Below are positions 3,772 to 9,188 of a stretch of DNA of 64,000 bases, one piece after another. Every line of letters starts with the position of its first letter. Positions within the stretch are counted from its first letter, which is position 1. The notes below the pieces were generated by a model. That model saw nothing but the letters and a program-made list of their open reading frames with translations. It did not search any database and was not told the DNA's origin. Both the position numbers and the translations under genes were made by a program. Source of the DNA: an uncultured Methanomassiliicoccales archaeon (GTDB lineage Archaea; Thermoplasmatota; Thermoplasmata; Methanomassiliicoccales; CAZOLG01); NCBI GenBank assembly GCA_964580935.1, contig CAZOLG010000002.1:259627-323626 (forward strand). The letters are read 5' to 3'.

Positions 3772-3817
3772 ATTTTTAACGGGTTTCTCTTTACGTTCTT
3801 CTATAGGATTGGTGTGC

Positions 3818-4849
3818 ATGAAATTTATCGACCTCCGGAGCGACACGGTCACTATGCCTACTCAGGAGATGCTGGATAGTATACCCCAGGCGGAACTCGG
3901 GGACGACGTGAACAGAGAGGACCCCACCGTTAACAAGCTGGAAAGATTGGCCGCCGAGAGGTTCGGCAAGGAGGCCGCTCTCCTCCTTCCTAGTGGAACT
4001 CAGTCCAATCTTGTGGCGCTTATAGTAAGCTGTTCCCCAGGAGATGAGATGATTCTGGAGGAGGAGTCCCACATCTATTACTATGAGGTGGGGGGTTTCT
4101 CGGCGGTGAGAGGGATCAGCCCCAGACTGATCAAAGGAGAGAGAGGAATCTTCACACCAGAGCAGGTGGAGGAAGCATACAGGGGAAGAAACCTGCACTT
4201 TCCAGATCCCACCCTCCTGGAGATCGAAAACACCCATAACCGTGCCGGCGGCACGGTCTGGAAAGTGGAAGAGGTAGCAGCAGTATCCAAAGTGGCCCAT
4301 GAACTGGGTATGAATGTCCATATCGACGGTGCCAGGATCTTCAATGCTACAAAAGCCCTCGGGGTGTCCGTCAAGGATTACGCAAAACACGTTGAATCCA
4401 TATCGTTCTGTCTTTCAAAGGGCCTGTCCGCCCCTGTCGGTTCGCTACTGGTGGCAGACGATGAGTTCATAGAGGAGGCCCGGAAGGCCCGGAAGATGCT
4501 GGGCGGGGGTATGCGGCAAGCGGGCATAATCGCTGCTCCCGGACTGATAGCCCTGAATAAGATGGTGGACAGACTGGGAGAAGATCACGACAACGCACAG
4601 AAGTTGGCAAGAGGACTGAGTGCAATGGAGGGTCTGAATATCGATATGGAAGCAGTCCAGACCAACATCGTGGTGGTAGACATATCTCCTCTGGGCATAT
4701 CTGCCGACGAGTTCAAATCCAGAACAAAGGAGGTGGGGGTGCTTGTCTCCAAGTTCGGAAAGAATCTGGTAAGATTTGTCACCCATCGTGGTATCTCCGA
4801 GGAGGACATCGACATCACGCTATCAAGGATGGAATCGATCAGATTCTAG
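3818..4849 (+). CDS. ltaE: Low-specificity L-threonine aldolase
   Basis: IDLRSDTVT, GDDV..EDPTV, SGTQSN, ENTHN, HIDGARIFNA, CLSKGL.AP.GS, GGGMRQAG. Confidence 0.95.
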   Translation: MKFIDLRSDTVTMPTQEMLDSIPQAELGDDVNREDPTVNKLERLAAERFGKEAALLLPSGTQSNLVALIVSCSPGDEMILEEESHIYYYEVGGFSAVRGISPRLIKGERGIFTPEQVEEAYRGRNLHFPDPTLLEIENTHNRAGGTVWKVEEVAAVSKVAHELGMNVHIDGARIFNATKALGVSVKDYAKHVESISFCLSKGLSAPVGSLLVADDEFIEEARKARKMLGGGMRQAGIIAAPGLIALNKMVDRLGEDHDNAQKLARGLSAMEGLNIDMEAVQTNIVVVDISPLGISADEFKSRTKEVGVLVSKFGKNLVRFVTHRGISEEDIDITLSRMESIRF

Positions 4850-6135
4850 CCTTTTCCGATACCTCTGTACACGAATCCCGCCCTTTTGCACTCCTCAGAG
4901 CCAAAGATATTCCTGCCATCGATTATTATCGGAGTATTCATCCTCTGGAACATGTCTTCCAGCGAGATCTCGTGGTAGAGAGAGTGGTCAGTAACAAAAA
5001 CGGCACAGTCTGAGTCCTCCAATGCGACCTCGACATCATCGGTGAGAGGAGCCCGATATGGATCTTCAACATACGGGTCATGCACCACCAACCTGAAATC
5101 GTCGATCAGGGAATCTATCACCACCTTTGCAGGGGAGTTTCTCTTCTCGCCGGAACCTCCTAGGAAACCAAGACCGAGTATGGATATCTTCGGGTTCTCA
5201 GGGACTGTTTCATGATCAACTGCCTCCCTAGTCAGGGCCACAAGATGGAAGGGCATTGAATCATTCACTCTCCTGGCCACAGGCACCAACCTCATCTTCT
5301 CGGGGGCAGCGCTCACCAGGAGCCACGGATCTTTAGGTATGCAATGACCGCCCACCCCGGAACCGGGGACGTGCATATCTCTGAAAGGGGCGGTATTGAC
5401 AAGCTCTCGTATTTCATAGGCATTGGCGCCCGTCTCTTCGCACAGTAAAGCCACCTCGTTAGCGAACGCTATCTGAACGTCCCGATAGGCGTTCTCCGCC
5501 GTCTTGGTTATCTCCGCCGAAGTGAGATCGGTTTCGTAAATCTCAGCTTCCACAATTCTGGAGTAGTATTCCCTACCTCTGGAAAGGGACTTCCTGTCAA
5601 GACCGCCGAGCACCCGGGAATAAGTCCTCATGTTGAGAAGAAGGCGGCCGGGCATTACCCTCTCTGGACAGTGGACCACCGAAAAATCTGTTCCCGCAGT
5701 CAGCCCACTAGCCTCTTCCAGCAAGGGGACTACACTGTTAGTCATAGTCCCCGGCGGGATTGTAGACTCGACGGACACCAGAGAGTCGGGACTGAGATTC
5801 CTTCCGACCTCCGTTGTCGCGCTCTTGAGTGCGCTAAGATCGGGGCTGTTATCTTCCCGGAGCGGCGTGTTCACGCAAATGAAGACAGCATCAGCCTTCT
5901 CGATTAGCGAAGTGTCAGTGGTGGAGACCAGTTTTCCCCCTTCCACCATCCTTGAGATTAGACCTGAAAGGCCGGGTTCCTCCCCCTTTATGGGATTGAT
6001 CTTCTCGTTAATCTGTTCGACTCTTGCGGCGTCCTTATCAATGCCATGAACGGAGAATCCTTTCTCGGCCAATCTACAGGCCAGGGCAAGGCCCACATAA
6101 CCCAGTCCAATGACAGTCACTCTCTTGTCGGGCAT
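4846..6135 (-). CDS. UDP-N-acetyl-hexosamine 6-dehydrogenase (WecC/WbpA family)
   Basis: VIGLGYVG, ICVNTP, VESTIPPG, CPERVMPG, ENAYRDVQIAFANE, GVGGHCIPKDP. Confidence 0.92.
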   Translation of the reverse strand: MPDKRVTVIGLGYVGLALACRLAEKGFSVHGIDKDAARVEQINEKINPIKGEEPGLSGLISRMVEGGKLVSTTDTSLIEKADAVFICVNTPLREDNSPDLSALKSATTEVGRNLSPDSLVSVESTIPPGTMTNSVVPLLEEASGLTAGTDFSVVHCPERVMPGRLLLNMRTYSRVLGGLDRKSLSRGREYYSRIVEAEIYETDLTSAEITKTAENAYRDVQIAFANEVALLCEETGANAYEIRELVNTAPFRDMHVPGSGVGGHCIPKDPWLLVSAAPEKMRLVPVARRVNDSMPFHLVALTREAVDHETVPENPKISILGLGFLGGSGEKRNSPAKVVIDSLIDDFRLVVHDPYVEDPYRAPLTDDVEVALEDSDCAVFVTDHSLYHEISLEDMFQRMNTPIIIDGRNIFGSEECKRAGFVYRGIGKG

Positions 6136-6281
6136 CGATTGAGAATGGAGAGCAAACCATATAATGCTAATCAATCTCGTTCCACCATTTCCTTAGGGGT
6201 TGATGAGTGTCCAATATTCTTCTCACCAACTCCCTCTACGGAAATCGCACTAAGGCCCTATGATAACAAAGAAGAAACAAT

Positions 6282-6296
6282 CGGAAACTTTATATT
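6282..6296 (+). promoter_or_regulatory. BRE/TATA promoter of the serC-like/serA leader
   Basis: CGGAAAC followed by TTTATATT (6289-6296), which predicts a transcription start near 6318-6322. Confidence 0.55.
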
Positions 6297-6322
6297 CAAA
6301 ATGCCAGCTAAAGGTGGCTGGG

Positions 6323-6518
6323 ATGACAACAAGTGACACACCTCCAAGTGAGCTTTGTTCCGTGCTTCAACAGGCCATAGAGTGGGGTGTGCAGGTTTCA
6401 TTTCTTGAACTGTCAGGAGAAGAGTCTTCAGGATGCGGAGGCGGAGGAGGATCCCAGATGACCTCCACAAGCTTCCCCGTCCTGGCCTGATGGTGCGGGA
6501 GGTTTTTTGGAGGTCATC
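6323..6518 (+). promoter_or_regulatory. Candidate translational attenuator: 55-aa leader ORF (6323-6490) plus SD-sequestering hairpin (6457-6518)
   Basis: Leader codons SSGCGGGGGS at 6425-6454. GATGACCTCCA (6457-6467) is the exact reverse complement of TGGAGGTCATC (6508-6518), which contains the SD for ATG 6523. Confidence 0.55.
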
Positions 6519-6522
6519 GATA

Positions 6523-7584
6523 ATGGTTAGATTATTTACTGTAGGTCCTGTAGAGGTTCGGGATGAGGTCATGGAAGCGATGAACAGACCCATGATCGTT
6601 CACCGTTCCCAGGAGTACAAAGAGCTGCACAGGCAGATTGTGGACAAGCTGCATAAGGTGTTGGAGACCGACATGGAGATAATGCTCGCCACCGCCTCAT
6701 CTACTGGGTTCCTAGAGGGCTGTGTGAGGAATGGTGTGGAGAGAAAGGTCCTCGGAATATCCAACGGTTCCTTCGGTGAAAGGTGGCAGTCGATAGCAGC
6801 TGCGAACGGAAAGGATGTTCGCAGACTGAGGGTTCCCTGGGGAGAATCGGTCAAGCCCGAGGTGGTCTCGGCCGAGGTGACCGAAGATACCGAAGCGGTT
6901 ACCCTGGTGACCAATGAGAGTTCCACCGGGGTGTTCAATCCGGTGGAGCGCCTGGTGAAAGAATTGAAGAGGGATCACTCTCCACTCGTATTTCTGGACG
7001 GAGTGACATCGATAGGGGCAATGGACCTAGAACTGGACGAACTAGATGTGGACGCACTCGTATTCGGGACTCAAAAGGCCCTCGCCCTGCCCCCGGGACT
7101 GGCTGTTGTCTGTGTGAGCGACAGGTTGCTCGCCAAGGCTGAACGGGTGACTAACCGGGGCTATTATTTCGATTTTCTGAGGTTGAAAGAATATAATGAC
7201 AGGGATTATGCCATGACTACTCCCCCCATCTCTCTCCTCTACGGACTGAACTTCCAGCTGGACCGGATGTTGGAAGAGGGGATGCAGAACAGATATTCAC
7301 GTCACCAGAAGATAGCCAGCATGGTCAGGGAGTGGGCGGAGGAGTGTTTGGGACTGTTCGCAGAAGAGGGCTACCGATCCAACACTATCACCGTGGTGAA
7401 TAAACCTGATTTCAGTTTTGAGGAGTTGCAGCGCAAGCTCATAAAACGGGGTTATCAGATATCGGCGGGCTACGGTAAGTTGAAAGAGAAAACGTTCAGG
7501 ATAGGACACATGGGAGACCTTACTGTCGAGGATGCAGAAGTGTTCCTTGATGTGCTCGATGAAGTTGTGGAGGAGTTAGAATGA
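6523..7584 (+). CDS. Class V aminotransferase (serine-pyruvate/phosphoserine aminotransferase-like, probable SerC role)
   Basis: LFTVGP, HRS, NGSFGERW, NESSTGV, DGVTS, GTQKALALPPG, FRIGHMG. Overlaps the serA start. SD GGAGGT upstream. Confidence 0.88.
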   Translation: MVRLFTVGPVEVRDEVMEAMNRPMIVHRSQEYKELHRQIVDKLHKVLETDMEIMLATASSTGFLEGCVRNGVERKVLGISNGSFGERWQSIAAANGKDVRRLRVPWGESVKPEVVSAEVTEDTEAVTLVTNESSTGVFNPVERLVKELKRDHSPLVFLDGVTSIGAMDLELDELDVDALVFGTQKALALPPGLAVVCVSDRLLAKAERVTNRGYYFDFLRLKEYNDRDYAMTTPPISLLYGLNFQLDRMLEEGMQNRYSRHQKIASMVREWAEECLGLFAEEGYRSNTITVVNKPDFSFEELQRKLIKRGYQISAGYGKLKEKTFRIGHMGDLTVEDAEVFLDVLDEVVEELE

Positions 7585-9188
7585 AGTTGTTGGTCACGGA
7601 TCCGATCTCGGAAGAAGGTCTGGAGATGTTGAGGAGAGACAGTGAAGTGCAGGTGGACTTTAGAGCCGGTCTGAGCCATGAAGAGCTGGTAAGGACTATA
7701 GGAGATTACGAAGGCGTGATTATCAGAAGCGGGACCGAGGTGAACTCCGAGGTAATCGATGCCGGTAAGAAACTAAAGGTGATCGGGAGAGCGGGAGTGG
7801 GGGTGGACAACGTCGATGTCACCTACGCCACCAGGAGAGGTATCCTGGTGATGAATACTCCTGCAGCTAACATCATTTCGGCCGCTGAACACACAATGGC
7901 CATGATGCTCACCCTGGCCCGAAAGATAGTTTGGGCAGATTCTTCACTAAAGTCCAGGAAGTGGGAGAGGGGTAAGTTCACAGGCATAGAGCTGAGTGGA
8001 AAGACACTGGGCATTGTAGGACTAGGGAGGGTGGGTAGTGAAGTGGCCAAACGGGCCAAATCATTCCAGATGCGTTTGATAGGTTACGATCCATATATAC
8101 CCCCCGAAAAGGCGGTAGAGGCGGGGGTCAGACTGCTGCCCCTGGAGAGAGTGCTGGAAGAATCAGACATAATCACCATTCATTCTCCTCTCACATCCTC
8201 CACACACCATATGATAGGTGAGGAGGAGCTGGCGATGTTGAGAGGGAGCGCCCTGGTGGTTAACTGTGCCCGGGGCGGGATTATCGACGAGAAGGCGCTC
8301 TACGAGAGTCTCAAAGAAGAGAAAATAGCCGGGGCCGCTCTCGATGTTTACGAGGAGGAGCCCCCTCTCGAGTCGGATCTTCTCGGCCTGAATAACATTG
8401 TGACTACGCCTCACCTGGGCGCTTCTACCAAAGAGGCCCAGGAGAAGGTGTCCCTGGAGATGGCCGAGCACGTCAAGCTGTTCCTGAAGGAGAATAAGAT
8501 CACCAACGCAGTGAATGCTCCCAAGGAGCGGGTAGACCCCAAGGTCGCTCCATTCATCCCCATAGCAGAGAAGCTGGGGTCGTTCGCACTCCAGCTGCTT
8601 GACGGGCCTATTAACAGGGTGAAGGTGACCTGCTACGGCGAACTAGCCTCCAAGGAGACCAAGATACTAACCGTGTCCGCCTTGATCGGGGTACTCTCCA
8701 GGGTGACCGGGGAAGAGACCAACATCATCAACGCTGAAGCCATAGCTAAGGAGAAAGACATCAAGGTGGTCGAGTCGAAGGTGGACGAGTCTTCCCATTA
8801 CATCAACATGATCTCGGTTGGCCTCCAGTCGGATGGAGAGCATAGAGAGGTGAGAGGTACCGCGTTCCCCAGTACCGAGCCGAGGATACTGGGAGTGGAC
8901 GAGTTCGATATCGATATGCCCCTGGAAGGAGATTTTATCATGACCATACATGACGACTTGCCCGGAGTGATCGGAAGCATTGGGAGCATCCTGGGCGATA
9001 ATGATATCAACATTGCCCGCATGGGCGTGGGCCGCCAGAAGAAAGGAGAGTCAGCACTCATGCTGGTCAGTGTGGACGATCCCGTTGAAGAACGGATACT
9101 GGAGGCTATCGAAGTGGAGGACAAGATCCGCGAGGCCAGGTATATTCGGCTCAGTGACATTGAATCAAGGGAGTACCTGTTGGAGTGA
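7581..9188 (+). CDS. serA: D-3-phosphoglycerate dehydrogenase (with ASB and ACT domains)
   Basis: GRAGVGVDNVD, GIVGLGRVG, NCARGG, DVYEEEP, TPHLGAST, C-terminal ACT domain (DLPGVIG...NIARM). Confidence 0.96.
   Translation: MKLLVTDPISEEGLEMLRRDSEVQVDFRAGLSHEELVRTIGDYEGVIIRSGTEVNSEVIDAGKKLKVIGRAGVGVDNVDVTYATRRGILVMNTPAANIISAAEHTMAMMLTLARKIVWADSSLKSRKWERGKFTGIELSGKTLGIVGLGRVGSEVAKRAKSFQMRLIGYDPYIPPEKAVEAGVRLLPLERVLEESDIITIHSPLTSSTHHMIGEEELAMLRGSALVVNCARGGIIDEKALYESLKEEKIAGAALDVYEEEPPLESDLLGLNNIVTTPHLGASTKEAQEKVSLEMAEHVKLFLKENKITNAVNAPKERVDPKVAPFIPIAEKLGSFALQLLDGPINRVKVTCYGELASKETKILTVSALIGVLSRVTGEETNIINAEAIAKEKDIKVVESKVDESSHYINMISVGLQSDGEHREVRGTAFPSTEPRILGVDEFDIDMPLEGDFIMTIHDDLPGVIGSIGSILGDNDINIARMGVGRQKKGESALMLVSVDDPVEERILEAIEVEDKIREARYIRLSDIESREYLLE

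Follow-up and report, generated by a model that had tools for sequence, protein, structure and literature searches.

A conserved leader open reading frame and a Shine-Dalgarno-sequestering hairpin suggest ribosome-operated control of a serine operon in Methanomassiliicoccales

How does an uncultured archaeon of the order Methanomassiliicoccales control its serine biosynthesis genes, and does a short open reading frame (ORF) in front of them take part? The question is raised by a locus within 64,000 nt of contig CAZOLG010000002.1 (assembly GCA_964580935.1; this whole stretch is hereafter called the window), where an operon of a putative phosphoserine aminotransferase gene and serA is preceded by a 55-codon leader ORF with a run of Ser, Gly and Cys codons and by a hairpin that holds the Shine-Dalgarno (SD) sequence of the aminotransferase gene. 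Judged by sequence comparison, this element is a putative translated-leader switch that sequesters the SD, and not a riboswitch, because the leader frame is kept, the hairpin covaries and codon-type constraint is limited to the run. On balance, we consider it more likely than not to be a ribosome-operated SD switch of the aminotransferase-serA operon that is tied to the decoding of serine-family codons. Its parts and the genes behind it are as follows.

6282-6296, + strand: transcription factor B recognition element (BRE)-like CGGAAAC and TATA box TTTATATT (TATA 6289-6296) of the leader-operon transcript; from the sequence.
6323-6490, + strand: leader ORF, 55 codons and TGA (6488-6490), translation MTTSDTPPSELCSVLQQAIEWGVQVSFLELSGEESSGCGGGGGSQMTSTSFPVLA; from the ORF list, with orthologs in 45/45 genomes.
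6340-6347, + strand: second anti-SD-like copy, ACCTCCAA, leader codons 6-9, complementary to TTGGAGGT at 6507-6514; from the sequence.
6425-6454, + strand: run of ten Ser/Gly/Cys codons (SSGCGGGGGS), 5' arm of the competing hairpin A; from sequence and folding.
6457-6467, + strand: anti-SD GATGACCTCCA, leader codons Q-M-T-S-T, paired with the run in hairpin A and with the SD in hairpin B; from sequence and folding.
6470-6504, + strand: inner stem AGCTTCCCCG (6470-6479)/CGGGAGGTT (6496-6504), with the leader TGA (6488-6490) in its apical region; from folding.
6508-6518, + strand: SD arm TGGAGGTCATC, with the SD core GGAGGT at 6509-6514 and a T6 stretch before it (6503-6508); from sequence and folding.
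6523-7584, + strand: class-V aminotransferase, putative phosphoserine aminotransferase, the first regulated gene (Pfam PF00266, 93.7 bits).
7581-9188, + strand: serA, D-3-phosphoglycerate dehydrogenase with an ACT domain (TIGR01327, 664.8 bits; cut-off 454).

The relatives searched first were 40 genomes of the same order from six other families, the window genome being alone in its own family. An ortholog of the aminotransferase gene was present in all 41 genomes (the window genome, G000, and the 40 relatives). At 20 of the 30 loci listed, an upstream small ORF ended in the same type of motif, GSGSGCG.GG(A)S(Q/R)MPS..FP..S*; the frame of this ORF relative to the aminotransferase gene differed among the loci. 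A covariance model built from the 20 motif-bearing upstream regions gave one strong match per genome (40-125 bits; next best, 24 bits) in 45 of the 151 sampled genomes of the order. By family, labelled f1 to f7, strong matches were found in 1/1 genomes of f1, 10/47 of f2, 4/4 of f3, 1/1 of f4, 10/10 of f5, 19/24 of f6 and 0/64 of f7, and every one of the 45 was located directly upstream of an aminotransferase ortholog. No score exceeded 26.5 bits in 133 genomes of other orders in the class. The window genome held no second copy, since its element scored 84.8 bits and the next matches, at 21.1 and 19.3 bits, fell inside ORFs (360; 222-245 codons). The element is therefore single-copy, specific to the aminotransferase-serA operon and, among the genomes searched, confined to the order.

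The helix of hairpin B, in which the anti-SD pairs with the SD arm, was conserved together with the run. In the 20 sequences of the model, 95.5% of the cells of the helix were paired, a level reached by none of 500 shuffles. In all 45 sequences, the helix (11-12 bp) was 96.3% paired, with changes on both sides at 5 pairs (39 cells); its covariation score was again reached by 0/500 shuffles, and registers slid along the alignment were only 37-65% paired. An earlier note on this DNA, made from the sequence of the window alone, had proposed a leader-peptide attenuator here and had suggested checking orthologous operons for a kept Ser/Gly run and covariation of the stem; both were found in the 45 genomes.

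As the earlier note had described, GATGACCTCCA (6457-6467) and TGGAGGTCATC (6508-6518) in the window are perfectly complementary, and the inner stem AGCTTCCC/GGGAGGTT does pair, with two G-U pairs; the further stems noted at 6318-6324/6451-6457 and 6337-6344/6384-6391 are also present, the second with one G-U. The 81-nt hairpin at 6450-6530 had a folding energy of -36.1 kcal/mol (shuffles, -22.8 +/- 3.5; z = -3.84; 1/200 shuffles as low), and the folding of the whole 226-nt leader was unexceptional (z = -1.65; 13/200 shuffles as low). The strongest argument against a chance origin is conservation together with covariation in the 45 genomes. An inner stem with the leader stop between its arms was predicted in 12/12 representatives, although its sequence varied.

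The leader ORF reported in the earlier note (ATG 6323, 55 codons, 20 of them Ser, Gly or Cys) is present behind the promoter that the same note had read as BRE and TATA, with CGGAAAC preceding the box TTTATATT at 6289-6296. ATG 6323 is located 34 nt past the start of the TATA box, and in 45/45 element-bearing genomes the leader ATG is 33-35 nt past the start of a TTTATAT box; the aligned promoter of the relatives consists of RGAAAG/GTAAG and a TTTATAT(T/A) box. This spacing places the transcription start site a few nucleotides from the ATG and, by archaeal promoter geometry, implies a putatively leaderless mRNA. The distance from the ATG to a GGAGGA anchor took 12 distinct values between 105 and 147 nt and was a multiple of 3 in 44/45 genomes; the sole leader departing from this had a misplaced anchor and an intact ORF. 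All 45 leader ORFs (47-64 codons) were open, ending in TGA (41), TAG (3) or TAA (1), and in the 44 leaders measured the stop was 27-37 nt upstream of the aminotransferase start. The leader ORF matched no Pfam family, and the N-termini of the leader peptides could not be aligned between families. Comparison of the genomes thus suggests that the leader ORF is translated. The aminotransferase gene itself starts with GTG or TTG behind a G5-6 SD in 40/44 element-bearing relatives and with ATG in the window; weak starts of this kind would make expression lean more heavily on exposure of the SD.

The ten-codon stretch SSGCGGGGGS was confirmed at 6425-6454, and in the window it carries three GGAGG sequences that mimic an SD (6437-6441, 6443-6447 and 6446-6450). 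In 44 leaders, 383 of the 440 run codons (87%) encode Gly (244), Ser (80), Cys (47) or Trp (12), against a background of 17.2% for these four amino acids in the long ORFs of the genome. By textbook pathways, these four amino acids of the run all derive from serine. Serine in the run is encoded by all six of its codons, from both codon boxes. Glycine is encoded by GGA in 212/244 cases, whereas usage of the four Gly codons is even in the genome as a whole (GGA, 25%). The run follows a period-6 pattern, GGA-NNN-GGA-NNN-GGA-GGA, with 4-6 GGA triplets at exact 6-nt spacing. The tail of the leader, behind the run, is also rich in serine (23%, 116/512, compared with 6.9% in the genome).

Substitutions were counted at codon positions 1/2/3, in 47 within-genus pairs and then in one pair per genus (7 pairs). 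The counts for the 47 pairs were 330/332/345 in the head of the leader, 33/51/101 in the run and 123/117/118 in the tail; those for the 7 pairs were 67/69/75, 4/3/17 and 21/21/20, respectively (Fisher p = 0.0015). Together with the kept frame, this pattern indicates that the frame is selected throughout the leader and codon identity in the run only. The sequence of the peptide would be mostly irrelevant outside the run.

The window genome contains one tRNA-Gly each with the anticodons UCC, GCC and CCC, and the GGA codons of the run are therefore read by a single tRNA species. The tRNA set found by aragorn in this genome comprises only 30 genes and is probably incomplete. A link of the Cys codons to O-phosphoserine via SepRS was rejected, the best TIGR00470 match being 57.8 bits against a cut-off of 380.65.

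According to folding, the anti-SD and the C/U-rich stretch after it can pair either with the SD arm (hairpin B) or with the G-rich run (hairpin A). At its end the run mimics an SD, with GGAGGAGCAUC in many of the relatives and the three GGAGG in the window; the earlier suggestion that GGAGG copies supplied by Gly codons compete for the anti-SD was borne out, in that they form hairpin A with it. Both hairpins were predicted in 12/12 representatives. Their median energies were -31.2 (A) and -35.4 kcal/mol (B), and B was the more stable in 37/44 leaders.

These features suggest the following switch. Transcription would begin approximately 3 nt before ATG 6323, giving an effectively leaderless mRNA on which the 55-codon leader would be translated. 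Near its end, a ribosome would traverse in order the Gly(GGA)/Ser/Cys run, the anti-SD (Q-M-T-S), the C/U-rich tail and a stop in the hairpin loop. In the presumed ground state, hairpin B, the anti-SD would be paired with the aminotransferase SD and would hide it; in the alternative, hairpin A, the anti-SD would be paired with the SD-mimicking G-rich run, leaving the SD accessible. Which of the two exists would depend on where the leader ribosome stands and how long it stays there, and translation of aminotransferase-serA would thereby be coupled to the decoding of Gly, Ser and Cys (and possibly Trp) codons, with the supply of charged tRNA as the probable signal. As for the sign of the response, exposure of the SD would last for as long as a ribosome occupies the final approximately 12 codons or terminates; slow decoding of Ser codons there (6452, 6464 and 6470 in the window) would lengthen the exposure, and a ribosome held further upstream in the run would favour the closed form. 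Judged by the models, sensing may reside in the Ser codons that close the run and follow it, or else occupancy of the run may be the shut-off signal. In a third reading, one outside the reach of equilibrium folding, hairpin A could be restored behind a terminating ribosome and serve as a kinetic trap.

The effect of ribosome position was modelled by placing a ribosome mask (A-site -15 to +11 nt) at each codon and computing the unpaired probability of the SD. The calculation was made with the whole mRNA for 14 leaders and with pairing across the ribosome forbidden for 44 leaders, and both sets gave the same answer; six rows of the 44-leader table read approximately 0.20 from a 5-nt SD window that was one base off, so the medians are the safer figures. 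The SD was predicted to be closed at baseline in most leaders. It opened partly with the A-site from codon 0/+1 to the stop (median, 0.14-0.32 from +1; 44 leaders). Within the ten-codon run of the window, only the last Ser codon (6452-6454) gave an opening of the SD, 0.33. The proposal of the earlier note, that a ribosome stalled on the run would mask the anti-SD and switch translation on, thus held in the models only for the last codon of the run and the Ser codons of the tail; with the A-site at run codons -12 to -1 the median unpaired probability was 0.00 (44 leaders). Since hairpin B loses its competitor when a ribosome occupies the run, the switch would be OFF, and not ON, under the simple model.

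Several points weigh against a switch that senses decoding. The models suggest that a ribosome starved within the run would close the SD; for a biosynthetic operon this sign is wrong, unless the Ser codons of the tail dominate, and the models themselves are equilibrium thermodynamics with an assumed footprint. Hairpin A clearly beats a shuffled run in f5 only and is near 0 in much of f6 (median z, -1.76 against nucleotide shuffles and -1.07 against codon-order shuffles). The run also holds residues off the pattern (Arg 12, Tyr 8 and Ala 15 among the 440 codons). The fixation of GGA suggests that what was selected is mimicry of the SD, pairing or the use of one tRNA, and not glycine itself; because GGA is the reverse complement of UCC, complementary G-rich and C/U-rich arms give Gly and Ser codons for reasons at the RNA level. 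These three properties of the run, GGA fixation, the period-6 GGA-NNN pattern and GGA/UCC complementarity, indicate a constraint on its bases at the RNA level. The 45 genomes are kin and amount effectively to about six families, and the counts overstate their independence. The basis of the proposed leader switch is comparative sequence and folding models.

The same properties could be explained by constitutive translational coupling through RNA unfolding, in which amino acids would not be sensed: only a leader ribosome would open hairpin B, terminating 27-37 nt upstream, the run would act as no more than an SD mimic, prolonging the open state by taking back the anti-SD once the ribosome has moved on, and the coding of Gly, Ser and Cys would be a by-product of complementary arms. 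The layout of the element is the one that such coupling calls for, with the anti-SD and the inner 5' arm formed by leader codons and the stop in the apical region. Hairpin B is the ground state in 37/44 leaders, the SD opens only with a ribosome on the last approximately 12 codons, the stop-to-start distance of 27-37 nt is kept, most orthologs have weak GTG or TTG starts, and 212/244 Gly codons of the run are GGA; an RNA-unfolding model with comparable spacings is described in PMC12548453. We nevertheless consider this explanation unlikely. It gives no reason for confinement to the serine operon, once per genome. The spacer codons keep Ser, Cys and Trp while their third bases vary (run 4/3/17, compared with head 67/69/75), with Ser drawn from both codon boxes, and the run is conserved in much of f6 even though its pairing there is no better than that of a shuffled run.

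Because the models predict that occupancy of the run closes the SD, they also accommodate an inverse logic, which we judge to be quite unlikely: the nascent motif G-S-G-[S/C]-G-[C/W]-G-G or the GGA-hexamer RNA would sense serine, glycine or a pathway product, a ribosome or factor would be held on the run, the SD mimic would be withdrawn and hairpin B would shut the operon off. If true, Archaea would have here a device that senses an end product by ribosome arrest or occupancy, not a starvation sensor. A related explanation invokes a trans-acting factor, more likely a protein than a small RNA or ligand, that would bind the GGA repeats, remove the competitor of hairpin B and shut the operon off when serine is plentiful, after the model of TRAP at the SD-sequestering hairpin of Bacillus subtilis trpE. 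The 4-6 nearly invariant GGA triplets at an exact 6-nt period would suit such a factor, and the closed form favoured by run occupancy in the models has the correct sign for end-product repression. However, 5/6 bases of each hexamer are constrained, unlike protein sites made of a triplet and a free spacer; the kept frame and the leaderless ATG would be left unexplained; no candidate factor came to light, and no search aimed at one was made; and there is neither an Rfam family nor a conserved aptamer-like part. We regard a factor as very unlikely. An arrest peptide is another candidate, for which fungal arginine attenuator peptides are the model: G-S-G-[S/C]-G-[C/W]-G-G, acting with serine, glycine or a product of the pathway, would halt the ribosome within the tail or at the stop and so set access to the SD or occlude the nearby ribosome-binding site. 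The run is the sole part of the peptide under codon-type constraint, and, with only 27-37 nt between stop and start, an initiating subunit could run into a ribosome held at the stop. However, run positions -5 and -3 vary among S, C, W, R, G, Y and H, a peptide-level role does not explain the fixation of GGA, and to our knowledge a Gly/Ser-rich motif is unlike the known arrest peptides; we regard this candidate as highly improbable. It is scarcely credible that the ORF encodes a functional small protein next to an ordinary structured intergenic region: the ORF of 47-64 codons is open in 45/45 genomes, but outside the run it shows no codon periodicity (head 330/332/345, tail 123/117/118), the codon differences in the head (158 synonymous, 566 non-synonymous) reveal no protein-level selection, the N-termini are unalignable between families and Pfam gives no match.

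A ligand-binding riboswitch with the same expression platform, offered as an alternative in the earlier note, was not supported. A cmscan of positions 5900-6900 (E<=10) against 4227 Rfam families, including the glycine riboswitch and serC-type leaders, gave only chance-level matches, the best on the hairpin being mir-3150 (21.7 bits; gathering score, 100). The would-be aptamer region, the 5' two-thirds of the leader, varies without restraint at every codon position (330/332/345), both among genera and inside single ones, yet stays in frame. A match to flavi_FSE at 6174-6233 on the minus strand (23 bits; gathering score, 43) was treated as chance. A transcription attenuator of the trp/his type with an oligo-T terminator was also rejected, since the T6 of the window (6503-6508) is not conserved; the relatives have TTCT, TCTCT, TTGTG, TTGG or ATTCC at this position. 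The relative frame of the leader and the aminotransferase gene is 0, 1 or 2 across lineages, and fusion of the two by frameshift or readthrough was rejected.

The ribosome-operated switch that we prefer resembles several known systems. Leader-peptide, ribosome-mediated attenuation is a textbook bacterial mechanism. The bacterial trp, his, leu and thr attenuators combine a leader peptide rich in codons for the regulated amino acid with mutually exclusive hairpins, one of which is an intrinsic terminator as the output; the element described here has the same codon-run leader and exclusive hairpins, but its conserved target is the SD and not a terminator. The cis-regulatory families of Rfam are alike in their position before amino-acid biosynthesis operons, and none matched. 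A full-text literature search, partial and without supplements, returned no archaeal leader-peptide attenuator and no such leader for serine biosynthesis.

The closest system is that of the mycobacterial polycysteine attenuators, leaderless short ORFs on whose Cys codons stalled ribosomes expose the SD of genes for cysteine (Canestrari et al., bioRxiv 10.1101/834739). Both systems have a leaderless (here putatively so) short ORF as first cistron, a run of codons for the operon's own amino acid and a duplex that hides a downstream biosynthetic SD, and in both control would be exerted at translation and not at termination. In mycobacteria, the Cys codons themselves are described as pairing with the SD region, so that a stalled ribosome directly blocks the duplex (10.1101/834739). 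Here, in contrast, an SD-like run would pair with an anti-SD just 3' of it, making a three-part switch for which the models predict the opposite effect of a stall; the present element also differs in belonging to an archaeon, in using Gly, Ser and Cys codons and in being a single locus and not a regulon. Translational attenuation of the ermC/cat type, as summarized in the same preprint (10.1101/834739), likewise depends on where a ribosome stands on a leader ORF, which decides between hairpins that mask and hairpins that free the SD and start of the next gene; it has four pairing segments and is triggered by a drug-bound ribosome, whereas three segments (run, anti-SD and SD) and an inner stem are found here, with no drug. 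In RNA-unfolding coupling (e.g., rpmI-rplT and MS2 coat-lysis; PMC12548453), too, an upstream ORF crosses the 5' arm of a hairpin sequestering the next ribosome-binding site and stops a few tens of nucleotides before that site. Our element differs in its non-conserved peptide with a specific codon run, its SD-mimic competitor and its restriction to one operon.

Some features of the region stand beside the switch. Most relatives (e.g., loci L009, L010, L012 and L015) have a conserved TGATAC(C/A)GG-like motif behind the TATA box, 10-19 nt before the leader ATG; the window is without this motif, and positions 6297-6322 read CAAAATGCCAGCTAAAGGTGGCTGGG. On sequence grounds, the motif could be a candidate transcription-factor operator and thus a second, transcriptional layer of control. 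Leader codons 1-8 of the relatives are kept at the nucleotide level, with ATGC(T/C)A followed by (G/T)(A/T)CATGCC at approximately +13 to +20, and read M-(L/P)-...-(V/D)-M-P, and the remaining head drifts; this 5' end may have a role in leaderless initiation or in pairing. The matching place of the window holds ACACCTCCAAG, an additional anti-SD copy. In the minimum free energy structure of the full leader, ACCTCCAA (6340-6347) pairs with the SD region, a feature so far specific to the window genome. A scan for sigma-70-type promoters and terminators was uninformative for an archaeal host.

The intergenic gap upstream of the aminotransferase gene is 350 nt long and contains the promoter, the leader ORF and the hairpin. 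On its other side are the following genes.

4846-6138, - strand: nucleotide-sugar dehydrogenase gene, divergent, on the other flank of the gap.
3809-4849, + strand: pyridoxal phosphate-dependent aldolase of the GntG/low-specificity threonine aldolase family (417.7 bits).

The GntG-type aldolase, which is glycine-forming, is thus located two genes upstream of the serine operon. The ATG of the aminotransferase gene is at 6523-6525 and not at 6524; no NCBIfam equivalog scored above its cut-off for this gene. SerA has the Pfam domains 2-Hacid_dh, PGDH_inter and ACT, and the serA start overlaps the aminotransferase stop (ATGA). The aminotransferase frame remains open up to an ATG at 6433 inside the Gly run, forming a 383-codon ORF (6433-7584, + strand). 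This extension is not kept in the relatives, in most of which a stop interrupts it, and a start at ATG 6433 is a possible mis-annotation by gene callers that would hide the leader. An antisense ORF of 111 codons (6258-6593, - strand) overlaps the leader and hairpin, has no Pfam match and is most likely spurious. The window genome (1.87 Mb in 11 contigs) encodes McrA (mcrA, 211.5 bits), and the presence of mcrA identifies the host as a methanogen.

The observation made in the earlier note was thus confirmed and its interpretation partly supported. The element would appear to be the first archaeal case of translational control by a leader peptide that is linked to amino acids. What is new is a set of 45 related examples with a covarying SD-sequestering helix, a kept leaderless frame and a codon run for serine-derived amino acids. 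As a matter of design, the codons that would carry the regulation also imitate an SD, and the sign of the resulting three-part switch is not obvious. The element makes it testable whether archaeal ribosomes sense amino acids on their own mRNAs, with the family serving as a set of natural variants.

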